Assembly (NCBI GenBank): GCA_964422865.1
Contig: CAYRCU010000003.1
Location: forward strand, 1 to 63,669
Length of the DNA stretch: 63,669 nt
Direction: 5' to 3'
DNA from: an uncultured Gammaproteobacteria bacterium
GTDB taxonomy: Bacteria; Patescibacteriota; Microgenomatia; UBA8517
The stretch's first letter is position 1. Every line of letters begins with the position of its first letter. The position numbers and the translations under genes are program-made. The notes under the pieces are model-generated. The model ran no database searches. It was not told where the DNA came from and saw only the letters and a list, made by a program, of their open reading frames with translations. Below are positions 27,232 to 57,456 of this stretch, one piece after another.

Positions 27232-27240
27232 TGTTAAACT
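27232..27240 (+). promoter_or_regulatory. extended -10 element TGTTAAACT, 6 nt before ATG 27247
   Basis: TGnTAnnnT directly before an SD-less start. Confidence 0.5.
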
Positions 27241-27246
27241 TTCTCT

Positions 27247-35960: not shown

Positions 35961-35969
35961 TGGTAGTAT
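35961..35969 (+). promoter_or_regulatory. extended -10 element TGGTAGTAT, 8 nt before ATG 35978
   Basis: TGnTAnnnT in a 33-bp intergenic gap, no SD. Confidence 0.5.
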
Positions 35970-35977
35970 TTCTATAC

Positions 35978-39141: not shown

Positions 39142-40775
39142 TCTGAACATTTCTTGTGAGGATCAGTTCTCCATCCCACAAAGACAATGTAATCAACAGG
39201 ATCCCTAATCTCAAAAATCTTTTCAAGACCATGTTCCTCCGCCTGGCCTGAGGAAATTGCAAATTCGTCTCCGACAAGTATCTGTTCAATACAGGGGTCA
39301 CTTTCCCAGGAAATACTTCCGGTTCTGATATTTGAAAAACTGTAGTCTTCATTAAATATCGGACGGTTGTAATAATCATCTCTAATCTCGGGGTCAACCA
39401 TCTTTTGAAACTTCTCAGGCGGATATTTTAGAAAAAATGCAAGTTCTATATAAGCAGGCTTCAAGCGCGATTGGTCAATCAAAAACATTTCTTTAGGCCT
39501 GTTTTGTGTTTCCCGGGCAAGCTCCTTAAATCCCCAGTTCCAAGCTCCGGCTCTTTCACCGGGGAGAAGCACAAAGTACGATCTCCACAGTAGTACCAAG
39601 GATAAGAAGATTAGAAAGCCTCCCACAGGAACCCACACGATCTTCAAAGTTCTGGAAACAATTTCGTCAACCCCAATAGAAATAACAATGGAAAGCGGCA
39701 ATAAAAGAGGCAGAGCCCTTTGCGTTGAAAAAGGTGTTCCCGTTAGTGCAATTGGCACAGGAAGCACAAAAAGAAGCATTATTAAAAATTTAAAAAATAG
39801 TTTCCTTCGTCTGTTGTATAAAACCCAAATTCCCACAAAATAGAGCAGTATCATCCAAGGATAAAACACGGACAATTCCGGCACGGATCGTTGCGGGTCC
39901 GAATCCGGAAGAAAGAATAAATTTCTTGGAGAATAGTAAGACACGTATTGAGAAAAAAACTCTCTAAAAAAAGACAAAGGCCAGGCAATCAATCTCGGCA
40001 TAAAAAGAATCTTATCTGCCTCCCGGGCTACTGCATCTTTGTAAAACAAAGTATTCTTGGAAAAAAGTGCCCCGGTTCTCAGAAGAATAAGATGGGGTAT
40101 TTGAATAAAGAGTCCTATTCCCATTCCCCATAAAAGGCATTTTTTGCTTTTTTTTCTAAACAGCTCTTTTCTAAAGACTAAAAAGTAAGCCAGTCCAAAA
40201 ATTGGCACAACAAACCTCTCTGTGTGTGCCCCGTATGTTGAAAAAGACAACAAAGGCAGAGCAAGCATTAGGTATTTTGGTTTCTTAAAAGAAATCCAGG
40301 AAAATAAAACTCCCAACGAAAAAACAAAAAAGCCAAAATATGTCTCATAACCGGCTCGCGCAAAAAATACATTCCACGGGCTTATCACAAAAAGAAAAGT
40401 TCCCAGCGCCACGGAAGATTTTTTCTTTAACACTCCGCTTGTCTGCAAAAAAAACGCAAAAATCAAAGCACTCATCACACCACTCAAGGCTGAAACAAAC
40501 CTCACTGAAAAAATACTCAATCCAAACACTCCGATAGAAAGACTGGTTAAATACGTATAGATAGGAGGGGAGTATGATCCGAAAAATCTAAACAATACAG
40601 GAAAGCTCTTTCCATACTCATCTTTACCGGTTTTTAATATAGAATACGCATTATATCCCGTAGTCGCTTCATCCACGTAAAGCCCGTTTGGAACCTCACC
40701 CAGTTTGTAAAAATACAAAAAAGTCCCGATCAAAGTAACCGCTATTATCATTAAAGAGACTCTAGTTTTTCGCAT
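39138..40775 (-). CDS. GT-C glycosyltransferase (DE..GYNAYSI.KTG paralog family)
   Basis: LYVDEATTGYNAYSILKTGKDEYG, SPWNVFFARAGYE. Confidence 0.82.
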   Translation of the reverse strand: MRKTRVSLMIIAVTLIGTFLYFYKLGEVPNGLYVDEATTGYNAYSILKTGKDEYGKSFPVLFRFFGSYSPPIYTYLTSLSIGVFGLSIFSVRFVSALSGVMSALIFAFFLQTSGVLKKKSSVALGTFLFVISPWNVFFARAGYETYFGFFVFSLGVLFSWISFKKPKYLMLALPLLSFSTYGAHTERFVVPIFGLAYFLVFRKELFRKKSKKCLLWGMGIGLFIQIPHLILLRTGALFSKNTLFYKDAVAREADKILFMPRLIAWPLSFFREFFSQYVSYYSPRNLFFLPDSDPQRSVPELSVFYPWMILLYFVGIWVLYNRRRKLFFKFLIMLLFVLPVPIALTGTPFSTQRALPLLLPLSIVISIGVDEIVSRTLKIVWVPVGGFLIFLSLVLLWRSYFVLLPGERAGAWNWGFKELARETQNRPKEMFLIDQSRLKPAYIELAFFLKYPPEKFQKMVDPEIRDDYYNRPIFNEDYSFSNIRTGSISWESDPCIEQILVGDEFAISSGQAEEHGLEKIFEIRDPVDYIVFVGWRTDPHKKCSD

Positions 40776-41421
40776 ATGAAATCATCTGAATAAATACAAG
40801 TACCACTAAAACAACAAAAAGCTTTTTAATTAGTCCGTTTGGAATTTTCTTAAACCCCTCGGCTACCCCAACAACAATAAATGGCATCAGACTAAACGGC
40901 CCAATAGAACTTCTACTGCCAATTAAAGAAAGCAAAACCACGGGAGCCATAAAACTCATTGCAAAATATCTATTCCACCTCACCTCAAGAAGTCCCCAAA
41001 GAAAAATCGGCAGAAAAACATAGGGAAATTTCTCAAATTCTCGAACTCCCACTCTTTCTCTCGGATGGTTTGCAAAAAAATATACATTTGGCCCCACCAC
41101 CTCGGAGAAATTGTTCGCAATCCTGGTCCAAGCAATGCTTTCCTTTCTTCCTTCGAGCCAATATCCAATTCTTAAGTATTTCGGCGGGTATTCACCAAGC
41201 CTCATGACCTGAATTCTTCGCTCATCGTTGCTTAGAGCTGTCAGAGAAACCTTTTGAGTAGTCTTCCATTGAAATATCAAAAGAAGCACAAGAAACAAGA
41301 AAAAACTGTTATGTTTTTTGTAAAGAGCCAAACTTCCAAGAATCACCAAAAATCCGGCAAACAAGTTTACGGCGAGTATTTTATACACCCAAAGATTGGC
41401 TAGTAATGGAAACCAAATCAC
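40762..41421 (-). CDS. small membrane protein resembling the C-terminal half of the neighbouring GT-C paralogs
   Basis: 219 aa. NFSEVVGPNVYFFANHPRERVG...FPYVFLPIFLWG parallels YYSPRNLFFLPDSDPQRSVPELSVFYPW of 39138-40775. No DE loop. Confidence 0.6.
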   Translation of the reverse strand: MIWFPLLANLWVYKILAVNLFAGFLVILGSLALYKKHNSFFLFLVLLLIFQWKTTQKVSLTALSNDERRIQVMRLGEYPPKYLRIGYWLEGRKESIAWTRIANNFSEVVGPNVYFFANHPRERVGVREFEKFPYVFLPIFLWGLLEVRWNRYFAMSFMAPVVLLSLIGSRSSIGPFSLMPFIVVGVAEGFKKIPNGLIKKLFVVLVVLVFIQMISYAKN

Positions 41422-41428
41422 TTAAAAT

Positions 41429-41450
41429 ATTGTAGCACCAATGCTACAAT
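41429..41450. promoter_or_regulatory. palindromic back-to-back extended -10 pair (bidirectional promoter or operator)
   Basis: ATTGTAGCA-CCAA-TGCTACAAT. Each TGCTACAAT is exactly 7 nt from a GTG start (41421 minus, 41458 plus). Confidence 0.75.
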
Positions 41451-41457
41451 TACAATT

Positions 41458-42945
41458 GTGCGTAAGCCAGGAGAACACATTGACCCCACAACGGAAATAT
41501 CCCTAGAAACAGTTAAAAATCGCACTGTGAAAGGAGTCTTCGTTCTAACAGGCCGCACCTTTGTATTAAATGTCATAGCATTTATCGCCCAGGGCTTCCT
41601 ATGGGCATACCTCAGCCCGAACGAATTTGGAGTATTCTGGATAGTATCCGCAATTGTAAACTTCTTAGCCTATTTTAGTGATATTGGTCTTGCCGCGGCA
41701 TTAATTCAAAAAAAAGAAAAACCAACAAGGCTGGATCTTGAAACAACTTTTACGGTTCAGCAAATTCTTGTAATAACACTTCTAGTGGCACTTTTCTTTA
41801 TAGCACCCTCTCTGGAAAGAATTCAATCTCTCTCCGGGGAAGGAAGAATGCTGATGTATGCTCTCGGGATATCATTCTTTCTTTCTTCCTTGAAAAGCAT
41901 TCCGTCAGTTCTTCTGGAACGCAAACTGGAGTTTAATAAATTTATTATCCCGCAAGTCATCGAAAACTTGGTCTACAATATTATCGTTGTGGTTCTCGCC
42001 ATAAATGGCTTTGGAATTTCAAGTTTTACCTATGCCGTGCTTGCCAGGGGGGTTGTGGGGCTTGTAGCAATCTATATCCTAGAGCCATGGACGCCGGGAA
42101 TAGCGTTATCAAGAAAATCTTTAAAAAACCTAATGTCATTTGGCCTGCCATATCAGGCAAACACTCTTCTTGCGGTTATCAAGGATGATGGCATGACAAT
42201 AATGCTGGGCAGTATTTTAGGTCCGTCCGGAGTAGGAATACTGGGGACCGCACAACGCCTTGCCCAATACCCTTTAAGATTTTTCATGGACAATGTCACA
42301 AAAGTTACCTTCCCGGCTTTTTCCAGGATGCAGGATGACAAAGATCACTTAAAGCGATCGGTAACACGCTCAATCTTTTTTATCACTTTTCTTGTTTTCC
42401 CGAGCATAATTGGTCTTGCAGTTATTGCCCCTGCTGTAATAAAAGTAATTCCTCGCTATGGAAAATGGGAACCGGCGCTTATCCCTCTCGCACTCCTTAC
42501 AATTAACGTCATGTTTGCAAGTATCACAACTCAGCTCACAAACCTTCTAAATGCAATCGGAAAAATAAAGACCACCTTCAAGCTTATGGTCATGTGGACA
42601 GTGCTCACGCTCACTCTTATTCCCTACCTCTCCCTGAAGCTGGGTGTAAATGGCGCGGCCCTCGGCTACGCATTAATCGGAACGAGCTCAATTATCGCAA
42701 TTTTTGTAGCCAAGCGTTATGTGAATTTCTCGCTCATTGATTCAACCTTAAAACCTCTTCTGGCCTCTCTGGTTATGGGAGTTGTTGTTTTCTTTCTAAG
42801 GAATGCTCTTCCGGTAAGCGCCACTTCTCTTCTGGTTCTCGTGGCAACAGGTGCGGTCACCTACATCTCAGTTATTTTTGCTTTGATAGGAGCCACACTC
42901 ATTGAAGATGCAAAAAAAGGTTTCAAGAATATTTTTTCAAAATAA
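41458..42945 (+). CDS. Wzx/PST-family oligosaccharide flippase
   Basis: LSPNEFG, DIGLAAALIQKK, LERKLEF, LGPSGVG; more than 12 TMs. Confidence 0.88.
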   Translation: MRKPGEHIDPTTEISLETVKNRTVKGVFVLTGRTFVLNVIAFIAQGFLWAYLSPNEFGVFWIVSAIVNFLAYFSDIGLAAALIQKKEKPTRLDLETTFTVQQILVITLLVALFFIAPSLERIQSLSGEGRMLMYALGISFFLSSLKSIPSVLLERKLEFNKFIIPQVIENLVYNIIVVVLAINGFGISSFTYAVLARGVVGLVAIYILEPWTPGIALSRKSLKNLMSFGLPYQANTLLAVIKDDGMTIMLGSILGPSGVGILGTAQRLAQYPLRFFMDNVTKVTFPAFSRMQDDKDHLKRSVTRSIFFITFLVFPSIIGLAVIAPAVIKVIPRYGKWEPALIPLALLTINVMFASITTQLTNLLNAIGKIKTTFKLMVMWTVLTLTLIPYLSLKLGVNGAALGYALIGTSSIIAIFVAKRYVNFSLIDSTLKPLLASLVMGVVVFFLRNALPVSATSLLVLVATGAVTYISVIFALIGATLIEDAKKGFKNIFSK

Positions 42946-44596
42946 ATATATATTACTCTTAATAGTTCTTGGGAGTTTGTCTTGGTCTTTGGTTATGATT
43001 CGAAGCGGACTAAGATATGACTACGGTCTTGGGTTCTGGGGACCAAACGGACACGATGGAATTTGGCATATAGCGCTAATCAACTCATTAACCCGTTTTC
43101 CTTGGCAAATGCCCACCTACGCCGGAGTGCCTCTAAAAAACTATCACATAGGTTTTGATCTTTTAATTGCTGCTGTTCACAAGTTAACTGCTGTCCCCGT
43201 GCACAATTTATACTTTCAAGTCATTCCTCCGATTCTCGCCATCCTCATGGGGTTATTAACATACAAATTTGTAAGTCTGTGGAAAAAATCCCAAAAATCC
43301 GCATTCTGGGGTACCTTTTTTGTATACTTCGGTGGAAGTTTTGGTTGGATCATAACACTCTTTTACCGCAAAACACTTGGCGGCGAATCAATGTTTTGGT
43401 CTCAGCAAGCTATCTCCACTCTTATAAATCCTCCCTTTGCTCTTTCTCTGGTAGTACTCCTCACGGGGTTAATTTTTCTTCAAAAAAAGCACGCACCGTT
43501 TGCAATACTTGCCTTTGGAGTTCTAATTCAAATAAAGTCATACGCAGGTGCATTAGCCCTCGGCAGCCTCCTTGTAGCAGGTGTCTATCAAATGCTTTTT
43601 CAAAAAAAAGCAGAGACACTAAAAATATTCACAGGTTCTCTTGTTCTTTCTCTAATCCTCTATCTTCCTCTAAACGCAAACTCTTCCTCGCTTTTAGTCT
43701 TCAAACCTTTTTGGTTTCTGGAGACAATGATGCAGTTAACGGATCGCGTAGGCTGGATTAAGTTTGGTGAGGCTATGGTTAACTACAAATACGCAAATAA
43801 TTTTTTTAAAGCAATTCCGGCATACGCCGTAGCCTTTGCAATTTTTATTATTGGCAATCTCGGAACAAGAATAATTAGTCTCAAATATTTTTTCAAAAAA
43901 TTGGACATGGACATTTTAAATGTCTACATTTTTTCGCTCATTGCGGCGGGTATCATTATCCCCACCTTTTTTGTCCAGAAAGGAACACCTTGGAACACAA
44001 TTCAGTTTTTCTATTATTCCTTGTTTTTTTTGAGTATTTTGGCCGGAGTAACCCTGGCATCAATTTTACAAAACACCCACACTATATTGATACATATCAT
44101 TATAGTGATAACGGTGGTTTTGACAACGATTCCAACAACCATTGGAACCCTAAAAGACATTTATTTGCCCACAGCCCCTCCAAGTTATTTATCAACTGCC
44201 GAACTTGAAGCGCTAAACTTTTTGTCTCAAGAACCACAAGGTGTGGTTCTTACATATCCGTTTGACGAAAAAGCCTCAAAAAGTGCCAAAGCACCAAAAC
44301 CTCTTTATTTGTATGTTTCTACAAGTTACGTCTCAGCTTTCTCTAAAAAACCTGTATTTTTAGAAGATGAAATGAACGCAGATATTACGGGCTTAAATTG
44401 GAGGAAACGCAGGGAAGAAATCGAAAAGTTCTATTCAAGTCTTGATCACAAGTTTGTTTACAATTTCCTCAGGGACAAAAATATTTCCTACATCTATTGG
44501 GTAAAGCCCCAACGCGCCCCTCTTGGAGAAACTCAGCTCGGAATAGACAGGATATTTGAAAACGAGGAGGTAGATATTTATAAAGTTGCCAATTAA
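42908..44596 (+). CDS. GT-C-like polytopic membrane protein
   Basis: NGHDGIWH acidic first loop, YHIGFD, IKSY; soluble C-terminal domain (FENEEVDIYKV). Confidence 0.65.
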   Translation: MQKKVSRIFFQNKYILLLIVLGSLSWSLVMIRSGLRYDYGLGFWGPNGHDGIWHIALINSLTRFPWQMPTYAGVPLKNYHIGFDLLIAAVHKLTAVPVHNLYFQVIPPILAILMGLLTYKFVSLWKKSQKSAFWGTFFVYFGGSFGWIITLFYRKTLGGESMFWSQQAISTLINPPFALSLVVLLTGLIFLQKKHAPFAILAFGVLIQIKSYAGALALGSLLVAGVYQMLFQKKAETLKIFTGSLVLSLILYLPLNANSSSLLVFKPFWFLETMMQLTDRVGWIKFGEAMVNYKYANNFFKAIPAYAVAFAIFIIGNLGTRIISLKYFFKKLDMDILNVYIFSLIAAGIIIPTFFVQKGTPWNTIQFFYYSLFFLSILAGVTLASILQNTHTILIHIIIVITVVLTTIPTTIGTLKDIYLPTAPPSYLSTAELEALNFLSQEPQGVVLTYPFDEKASKSAKAPKPLYLYVSTSYVSAFSKKPVFLEDEMNADITGLNWRKRREEIEKFYSSLDHKFVYNFLRDKNISYIYWVKPQRAPLGETQLGIDRIFENEEVDIYKVAN

Positions 44597-44638: not shown

Positions 44639-44647
44639 TGATAAAAT
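44639..44647 (+). promoter_or_regulatory. extended -10 element TGATAAAAT, 7 nt before ATG 44655
   Basis: TGnTAnnnT; no SD. Confidence 0.55.
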
Positions 44648-44654
44648 TGTTTAA

Positions 44655-45554
44655 ATGCGAAAAATTTCCGTTGTTATAAACACTTTAAACGAAGAAAAAA
44701 ATCTTCCAAGATGTCTCGCATCAGTTAAAAATCTAGCGGATGAAGTCGTGGTTGTTGATATGAATTCCAGTGATAATACTCCCGTAATAGCAAGAAAAGC
44801 GGGTGCCAAAGTTTATACCCACAGAAGGATGGGCTACGTTGAACCTGCAAGAAACTATGCCATCAGTAAAGCTACAAACAAATGGATCTTGATCCTTGAT
44901 GCGGACGAAGAGATCCCCAAAAGCCTGGCCGCAGAAATAAAAAAAATTATCAAATCCCCAAAGGCCGATTACTATCGCCTTCCCAGGAAAAATATAATTT
45001 TCGGCAAGTGGATCAGGTATTCTCGCTGGTGGCCGGATTACAACATCAGGCTTTTTAAAAAAGGGGCAGTTATTTGGAGCGAAATCATTCACTCAATCCC
45101 GGAAACCCGCGGGAAAGGATCAGACCTTGAGCCGTCAGAAAAATTTGCCATAACACACCACAATTATCAATCCGTAGAGCAGTTTTTAAATCGTCTTAAT
45201 CGCTACACTTCTTATCAAGCAGAAAGCCTGATAAATGACGGGTACAAATTTGTTTGGTCGGATGTTTTAACAAAACCCTCAAAAGAATTTGCCGGCAGAT
45301 TTTTCGCATCCGAAGGCTACAAAGACAATCTTCATGGCTTAGCTCTGGCTCTCCTTCAAGCTTTCTCGGAACTGGTCTTGTATCTTAAGGTTTGGCAATA
45401 CGAAGGCTTCACGCAAAAAAAACTTGAAGTGAAAGAAGTAACAGTAAAAATCAAAGACACTCAAAAAGATCTTAATTATTGGACTGCGGACACTCTTTTG
45501 AAACACGGTGGAGGAGTAGTTCAGAGAATAAAAAGAAGATTTAAACTTCCGTAA
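44655..45554 (+). CDS. GT2 glycosyltransferase (WaaE/beta-1,4-glucosyltransferase-like)
   Basis: INTLNEEKNL, VDMNSSDNT, ILDADEE, WWPDYNIRLF, IHS. Confidence 0.88.
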   Translation: MRKISVVINTLNEEKNLPRCLASVKNLADEVVVVDMNSSDNTPVIARKAGAKVYTHRRMGYVEPARNYAISKATNKWILILDADEEIPKSLAAEIKKIIKSPKADYYRLPRKNIIFGKWIRYSRWWPDYNIRLFKKGAVIWSEIIHSIPETRGKGSDLEPSEKFAITHHNYQSVEQFLNRLNRYTSYQAESLINDGYKFVWSDVLTKPSKEFAGRFFASEGYKDNLHGLALALLQAFSELVLYLKVWQYEGFTQKKLEVKEVTVKIKDTQKDLNYWTADTLLKHGGGVVQRIKRRFKLP

Positions 45555-53682: not shown

Positions 53683-54497
53683 AGCCGACACTTTCAATAA
53701 TCATAGTAAGCTACAACACGAAACGCCTCACTCTTCAATGCATTAAATCAATTTTTTCCTCAAAACCTAAAGTAAATTTTGAAGTAATAGTTGTAGATAA
53801 CGCTTCCCAAGATGGGTCAGCTGAAGCTCTCTCAAAAATCAAAAATATAAAGTTAATAAGAAATTTCACAAATACGGGATTTGCCAGAGCCAACAACAAG
53901 GGCATCAAAAAAGCGAAAGGGCAATATATTCTTCTTCTGAATTCCGACACGGAGACGGCAAAAGGATCACTTGACAAGCTTGTTGACTTTGCTCGAAAAA
54001 ATCCTGATGCGGGTGTGGTTAGCCCGAGATTGTTAAACTCCGATAAAACCATTCAAGCTTCGGTCTACAATTTTCCGACAATAAGAAATGCAATTTTGGA
54101 ATACTGGTTTGGCAAAAAGGGAGCCTACGAAAAACATTTCCCAAAAAGCTCAAAACCTGTCAAAGTAGAAGCTCTCGTCGCAGCCGCGTTTTTAATTACT
54201 CCCAAAGCAAGGAAAAAAGTTGGATTGCTGGATACCAGGTATTTTATGTTTTTTGAGGATTTGGACTATTGCAGAAGGGTAAGAAAGTCGGGTCTTAAAA
54301 TTTACTATTTGCCAACTGTTAATATTATCCATCATCACGGAGCGAGCGGGAAAAAAATTGCAAAAAGCGATGATCAATGGCGGCGCCTTGTCTCATCGTC
54401 AAAAATCTATCACGGCGCAATAAAACACTACATTCTCTGGTTCATTCTCTACTCGGCTCAAAAATTTACCCAACTGAAAGTAGCTGTTAGACTTTAA
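53679..54497 (+). CDS. GT2 glycosyltransferase (WbbL-like)
   Basis: IVSYNT, VDNASQDGS, GFARANN, LLNSD, FFEDLDYC. Confidence 0.88.
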   Translation: MKPTLSIIIVSYNTKRLTLQCIKSIFSSKPKVNFEVIVVDNASQDGSAEALSKIKNIKLIRNFTNTGFARANNKGIKKAKGQYILLLNSDTETAKGSLDKLVDFARKNPDAGVVSPRLLNSDKTIQASVYNFPTIRNAILEYWFGKKGAYEKHFPKSSKPVKVEALVAAAFLITPKARKKVGLLDTRYFMFFEDLDYCRRVRKSGLKIYYLPTVNIIHHHGASGKKIAKSDDQWRRLVSSSKIYHGAIKHYILWFILYSAQKFTQLKVAVRL

Positions 54498-54500
54498 AAA

Positions 54501-57442: not shown

Positions 57443-57451
57443 TGATATAAT
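57443..57451 (+). promoter_or_regulatory. extended -10 element TGATATAAT, 5 nt before ATG 57457
   Basis: Perfect TGnTATAAT in a 17-bp gap. Confidence 0.6.
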
Positions 57452-57456
57452 AATTC

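Follow-up and report, generated by a model that had tools for sequence, protein, structure and literature searches.

The window, a 63,669 nt stretch of DNA, belongs to a genome of 766 kb (28 contigs, ~41% GC) and contains two divergently oriented gene sets whose start codons are separated by a gap of only 36 bp (Table 1). The plus-strand set opens with wzx and the minus-strand set with the gene for a 219-residue membrane protein, P0001. No significant Pfam match was obtained for the 219-residue protein or for the 564-residue ORF that overlaps the end of wzx, even at E = 1. A separate leaderless-type box precedes the next plus-strand gene, at 44655. The 219-residue protein is one of a family whose members have 220–260 residues, share the motif NLW(I/V)W(K/R) near the N-terminus, and lack a Pfam match; orthologues occur in 22 of 61 relatives, and members are often found near wzx or GT-C genes. 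An earlier reading, made from the sequence alone, named the two sides a Wzx arm and a GT-C arm. The Wzx flippase does head the plus arm, whereas the minus arm begins with the 219-residue membrane protein and the GT-C (PMT_2) gene comes second.

Table 1. Features of the divergent gap and of the genes on either side.
Feature	Position	Strand	Basis
Whole gap between the divergent start codons, with both predicted promoters inside	41422–41457		sequence, ORF list, repeat search
Inverted repeat, 9 nt arms, 100% complementary, 4 nt apart	41429–41437 / 41442–41450		repeat search
Predicted extended -10 box of the wzx promoter, TGCTACAAT	41442–41450	+	hexamer TACAAT at 41445–41450, 7 nt before GTG 41458
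Predicted extended -10 box for the 219-residue gene and the GT-C gene, TGCTACAAT in minus-strand reading	41429–41437	-	7 nt before GTG 41421
TTAAAA, weak -35-like hexamer of the predicted wzx promoter with a 17 bp spacer; also the discriminator of the opposite promoter	41422–41427	+	promoter scan (TTAAAA-17-TACAAT with TG)
Tandem repeat of TACAAT, immediately following the wzx -10 box; discriminator	41451–41456	+	sequence read
wzx-type polysaccharide flippase, 495 residues, GTG start	41458–42945	+	Polysacc_synt_3, E 6e-58; orthologue in 58 of 61 relatives
Second ORF of the plus unit, up to 564 residues, overlapping the end of wzx	42902–44596	+	ORF list; no Pfam match
P0001, polytopic membrane protein, 219 residues, GTG start	40762–41421	-	ORF list; family comparison; no Pfam match
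GT-C-type (PMT_2-like) glycosyltransferase, 545 residues, second gene of the minus unit, 14 nt overlap with P0001	39138–40775	-	ORF list, Pfam

In the ORF list the gap is bounded by GTG codons at 41421 (minus strand) and 41458 (plus strand), and homology fixes both as the true start codons. First, the conserved block EHxDPTxEIxLETVK of wzx opens five codons past its GTG, with no other canonical in-frame start between the two. Second, P0001 shares with its orthologues the motif NLW-V/I-W/Y-K/R (here NLWVYK) from residue 9. Third, an in-frame TAA (41422–41424, minus strand) immediately precedes the P0001 GTG, so this ORF has no possible start further upstream. With both starts fixed, any promoter has to lie within the 36 bp or inside the neighboring gene.

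The gap reads TTAAAAT-ATTGTAGCA-CCAA-TGCTACAAT-TACAATT, or 7+9+4+9+7 nt. Complementarity is confined to the two 9 bp arms; neither the CCAA center nor the 7 nt flanks, TTAAAAT and TACAATT, are reverse complements. The sequence-only reading had proposed this layout, with a GTG at each end, and called it perfectly symmetric. The sequence, the ORF list, and the repeat search bear out the layout, and the conserved N-termini and the stop codon before the minus-strand GTG bear out the two starts; the symmetry extends to the layout and the arms but not to the center or the flanks. On the coding strand upstream of each gene the arm has the form TGnTAnnnT, TGCTACAAT being present on both strands, and the spacer between box and GTG is 7 nt on either side, which places both boxes at -13. 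The hexamers (41429–41434 and 41445–41450) are 10 bp apart and the 9-mers 4 bp apart. Within the arm, a C at box position 3 and a C at hexamer position 3 deviate from the consensus, and TGNTANNNT is the form of the box that stays valid when both non-consensus positions are altered. No recognizable -35 hexamer accompanies the predicted minus promoter; extended -10 promoters in general can do without one. No Shine-Dalgarno-like sequence (a GGAG-like word) is present on either strand of the 36 bp. The tandem TACAAT, and the 8 bp palindrome ACAATTGT (41453–41460) that takes in part of it and overlaps the wzx GTG, are probably incidental. Relatives have TTTAAG-like discriminators where the window has the second TACAAT.

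Leaderless genes with sigma-70-type, often extended, -10 promoters are known from Mycobacterium, Streptomyces, and Deinococcus, with TANNNT ~12 nt ahead of the start codon. Mycobacteria are documented to translate leaderless messages efficiently from GUG; to our knowledge, this is not documented in CPR bacteria. A search of the accessible literature found no description of leaderless transcription in CPR/Patescibacteria, the matches mentioning the word only in passing. The regions upstream of the first start codon were examined for 554 long, non-overlapping ORFs of the present genome, with ORFs and starts called simply rather than by a trained gene finder. TANNNT begins at -12 in 64 of the 554; the counts at -13 and -14 are 35 and 32, compared with ~15 at other upstream offsets, where the background is ~3% at any position. 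About half of the matches at -13 are expected background. Internal in-frame start codons, used as a control, show TANNNT at 1–2% per offset, and Shine-Dalgarno-like words upstream of the 554 starts rise weakly, from ~7 to ~15. A box at -11 to -14 precedes 139 ORFs; TG occupies the extended -10 position in 32 of these (23%, versus ~6% expected for a random dinucleotide, a rough estimate), and 26 of the 139 start with GTG. The box is more frequent at genes heading a transcription unit: 26–28% have it where the upstream neighbor is divergent or distant, versus 16% of closely following genes. Over background, ~14% of long ORFs look leaderless. By these counts the genome shows the sequence pattern that is classical for leaderless transcription. 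The two boxes in the gap fall inside the -12 to -14 peak, one base off the mode, which is a 6 nt spacer in the genome and among the orthologues.

Extended -10 boxes 5–8 nt before the start are also seen at other genes of the glycosylation island in the window (44641–44654, 35963–35976, 54487–54500, 27233–27246, and 57443–57456). With such boxes before several of its genes, the island seems to be divided among many short transcription units that are leaderless.

The wzx promoter was compared across 29 oriented wzx loci of other genomes, nearly all from different genera, with 50–68% protein identity. TANNNT stands 5–8 nt before the wzx start in 26 of the 29 orthologues and is TGN-extended in 24 of these 26. 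All but one of the 24 extended boxes follow TGNTA[C/A]AAT, seven of them being exactly TGCTACAAT; the remaining box is TGTTAAACT. Most spacers measure 6 nt (18 loci) or 7 nt (7 loci), and 23 of the 29 orthologues start with GTG. In most relatives the gene upstream of wzx is a co-directional membrane protein of ~414–494 residues that ends 0–70 nt before it; of these co-directional genes, one is of GT-C type (PMT_2-like) in Pfam and a second that was tested gave no match. The box is kept with divergent and co-directional upstream neighbors alike, and the plus arm is thus a putative old promoter-plus-start cassette that travels with wzx. The cassette, from TGNTA[C/A]AAT to the GTG, is kept at the nucleotide level within the family and in neighboring families, and so throughout an entire order, weak start codon included. 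Between box and GTG, a discriminator TTTA(A/G)G (TTTAAG or TTTAGG) recurs in about half of the wzx loci.

On the minus side, a -10 or extended -10 box lies 5–7 nt before the start in ~9 of the 13 P0001-orthologue loci examined. Examples are TGTTAAAAT-7-ATG in G014, TGCTAAAAT-6-GTG in G047 and G049, TGTACAAT-6-GTG in G016 and G044, TGTTAGAAT-5-ATG in G043, TGCTATACT-7-ATG in G054, and TGTTAATAT-6-ATG in G004. Given these boxes, the minus arm is likewise a predicted conserved leaderless promoter. The sequence-only reading had taken each arm for an outward-facing extended -10 element, and each is indeed found at the expected leaderless position and is conserved with its own gene in relatives. The same conservation makes it extremely improbable that the likeness to promoters arose by chance in AT-rich intergenic sequence and that the repeat has no function. 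TANNNT does occur at ~3% of any upstream offsets, and a promoter scan of the 2 kb region returned 3 promoter-like sites versus 4.3 in shuffled sequence; however, the extended box recurs before wzx in 24 of 29 genomes, boxes recur before the P0001 orthologues, and both genes need a promoter, with only 36 bp to hold one.

It is likely, from these comparisons, that two separate conserved sigma-70-type extended -10 leaderless promoters abut back to back in the gap, and that the palindrome is a by-product of their shared consensus. Two TGCTACAAT promoters, 4 bp apart and facing outward, would each lie 7 nt upstream of a GTG. The plus promoter would serve wzx and the following ORF, and the minus promoter the 219-residue membrane protein and the GT-C glycosyltransferase. 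On both strands the predicted transcription start falls 7–8 nt past the hexamer: T41457 or G41458 for the plus promoter, and the complement of 41422 or 41421 for the minus promoter. Any leader would be at most 1 nt long (0 or 1 nt), with translation from a 5'-terminal GUG and no Shine-Dalgarno leader; since the spacer is 7 nt rather than the modal 6 nt, the messages may carry that 1 nt. Each promoter would be an old attribute of its own gene, and in this genome the two would have come to lie 4 bp apart; the same TGNTA[C/A]AAT variant on both sides would then give the 9 bp inverted repeat. The earlier suggestion that one palindrome drives both sides is more aptly phrased as a chance abutment of two separate promoters.

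The predicted transcription start sites, 41421/41422 and 41457/41458, are 35–37 bp apart, and the -35 zone of each promoter would be the discriminator and start of the other. A bacterial open complex spans roughly -55 to +20. With start sites ~37 bp apart, the footprints of two polymerases would overlap, as the sequence-only reading had proposed, and it is plausible that both promoters could not be occupied at once.

A different role for the repeat would follow if transcription started elsewhere, for example within the neighboring coding regions, in which case the palindrome could form a 5'-UTR hairpin that modulates translation or stability. The predicted fold of 41422–41470 is stable for its size (-11.9 kcal/mol, z = -2.95 versus shuffles), and a pattern scan reports a terminator-like pattern on the minus strand. 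Yet the hairpin is missing from the orthologous regions while the -10 boxes stay 5–7 nt from the start, neither GTG is separated from the hairpin by a Shine-Dalgarno sequence, the window as a whole has no Rfam match, and no convergent gene here needs a terminator. Taken with this evidence, a hairpin function is very unlikely. An intrinsic terminator was considered and rejected: the stem has only 3 GC pairs, the tail is ATTTTAAG, and no gene ends here, both neighbors starting instead.

The palindrome may alternatively serve, in addition to its promoter function, as an operator through which a dimeric regulator silences or coordinates the two arms. The perfect 9 bp arms are unusual by one measure, as an inverted repeat of at least 9 bp occurs in 20 of 20,000 random 36-mers of intergenic composition (0.1%), and the repeat is among the four longest in the 189 intergenic gaps of the genome. 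Conservation of the palindrome speaks differently. wzx and P0001 are divergent neighbors in five genomes, the window genome (G000) included, and the back-to-back leaderless arrangement is present in all five. However, the gap is 35 bp in G016 (AAGTTT ATTGTACA TAAATT TGTTAAAAT TAGTTT), 30 bp in G044 (ATTAAAG ATTGTA TCGTG TACAAT GTTTTT), 61 bp in G014 with boxes 30 nt apart, and 65 bp in G049 with boxes 33 nt apart. Identical 9-mers occur solely in the window genome, and box spacing and arm identity vary among the five. On this comparison, such variation is the opposite of what would be expected of a conserved operator.

Identity of the two arms also has a simpler candidate source. When the 30 other extended -10 leaderless boxes in this genome are compared pairwise, 3.2% of the pairs match exactly, and among 25 wzx-orthologue boxes the figure is 15% (the 25 are a hand list; the script counts 24 extended boxes, the difference being a distal box in L030). 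Because the lineage consensus has only two variable positions, arm identity would be a modest coincidence. No regulon is marked by TGCTACAAT: 10 copies are found in the genome versus ~9 expected by chance, on a rough composition estimate, and the eight other copies lie within coding sequence or away from starts, none at a promoter. A genome-wide search for a second copy of the inverted repeat found none with fewer than 2 mismatches, the best other candidate having 2 mismatches and a different spacer.

One argument for an operator comes from public sequences. In species genomes totaling 596 Gb, ATTGTAGCA-N4-TGCTACAAT was found 23 times, and 52 metagenome stretches also contain it; the matches are spread over unrelated phyla, and their number is near the chance level estimated for 18 specified bases. 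A subset of these matches lies 5–7 nt before an 84-residue gene (…ITQRELRNESG…) on contigs of 58–64% GC, including Dormiibacterota and Eremiobacterota MAGs (L055, L062, L077, L092, L101, L102, and L105; also L084). The gene is read, from its sequence, as a putative Phd/YefM-type antitoxin, and the palindrome at these loci probably acts as an autoregulatory operator that overlaps a leaderless promoter. The same palindrome thus precedes leaderless antitoxin genes of unrelated high-GC bacteria, where one sequence can serve as both promoter and operator. However, no homologue of the 84-residue antitoxin was found in the window genome, so these loci do not bear on the gap, and none of the eight genes around the gap encodes a regulator or DNA-binding protein. 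Together with the absence of arm identity and spacing from the other four genomes in which the pair is divergent, the chance identity of 3–15%, and the lack of further repeat copies, this leaves an operator role very unlikely.

The sequence-only reading had argued that two -10 boxes would not in themselves require exactly identical arms, and had hinted on this basis at a dimeric regulator. Neither point is sustained by the identity frequencies, by the four other genomes, where identity together with the 4 nt spacing is absent, or by the search for a regulon. Of the checks it named, conservation of the palindrome in relatives fails, as the gaps there measure 30, 35, 61, and 65 bp and the arms differ from each other, and the genome-wide search for further repeats finds neither TGCTACAAT nor the inverted repeat above chance. 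It is conceivable, if distinctly improbable, that selection has made the boxes identical in this one lineage, the 22 bp palindrome being a putative site for a dimeric protein that switches the flippase and GT-C arms together; in a weaker variant, the 4 bp abutment would act as an either/or toggle that sets the ratio of flippase to glycosyltransferase.

Abutting promoters of the kind favored here, two leaderless promoters placed back to back, are not confined to this gap. Among the 57 divergent pairs of this genome, 10 have a -10-like box 5–8 nt from both starts, with gaps of 23–234 bp and no preferred spacing seen among the 10. A search of the 61 relatives with ATTNTANCA-N4-TGNTANAAT matched five genomes, and a reversed control pattern matched none; in G016 and G017 the match lies between unrelated divergent genes, whose starts are 6–9 nt from each box. 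With the layout recurring in 10 of 57 pairs and at unrelated gene pairs, it is, as far as these patterns indicate, a routine outcome of packing leaderless promoters in small genomes, and the gap is a neat but ordinary case of a known type. Elsewhere in the genome, a 104 bp gap between divergent ORFs (contig C6, 37692–37795) consists of two tandem ~51 bp units (GCTTTTGCTTACTACAACTGATCTTTAACTGATCTTTTCAGTTGGAGCCAA…), each with an internal AACTGATCTTT direct repeat. Runs of N inside intergenic stretches (contig C17 at ~8777, contig C14 at ~5240, and L037) are either assembly gaps or withheld sequence.

Little hangs on the palindrome itself. The heavy use of leaderless extended -10 promoters in this genome and its relatives suggests that gene starts in CPR genomes of this type can be fixed from the -10 box. 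For compact palindromes between divergent genes, the default reading would be two abutting promoters rather than operators. The conserved wzx cassette may also provide a clean natural set of promoter variants for in vitro work on CPR transcription.

Divergent promoters have reportedly been classified by Beck and Warren, with a back-to-back type among the classes. Classical back-to-back promoters have leaders, usually span >100 bp, and commonly have a regulator site between them. The gap resembles these in having two separate core promoters on opposite strands with overlapping upstream regions; it differs in spanning 36 bp in all, in its predicted lack of leaders, and in giving no sign of a regulator site.

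The bidirectional promoters described by Warman, Forrest, Wade, and Grainger have overlapping -10 elements and transcription start sites 7–25 bp apart, with a mode of 18 (bioRxiv 10.1101/2020.01.31.928960), and separate divergent promoters are explicitly not classed as bidirectional by these authors (PMC12825309 is the follow-up). In E. coli, polymerases at such promoters interfere with each other negligibly while activity is basal, and steric competition emerges only under strong activation of one direction (PMC12825309). The gap is similar in its compact, pseudo-symmetric divergent sequence, in that one polymerase would exclude the other, and in that competition is a possible regulatory lever. 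Unlike those promoters, its boxes are separate, 4 bp apart, and its predicted start sites are 35–37 bp apart. Assignment to the symmetric bidirectional class in the sense of Warman was therefore considered and rejected, as the -10 elements do not overlap or base-pair and the start sites fall outside 7–25 bp.

Type II antitoxin promoter-operators of the Phd/YefM-like kind share with the gap an identical palindrome in which one arm is the -10 box, 6 nt before a leaderless start. They differ in belonging to other organisms (58–64% GC) and other genes, and in that the palindrome is conserved among the homologous loci.

The closest likeness in the features compared is to leaderless genes, for which mycobacterial and Streptomyces transcription start maps are cited in PMC12641261. 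As in the Mycobacterium, Streptomyces, and Deinococcus cases, the -10 element lies 6–7 nt before the start, there is no Shine-Dalgarno sequence, both ATG and GTG serve as starts, and TANNNT shows a genome-wide peak. Unlike those cases, the host is a CPR bacterium and leaderless expression is here predicted from sequence. On all sequence features tested, the gap fits the class of leaderless extended -10 promoters.
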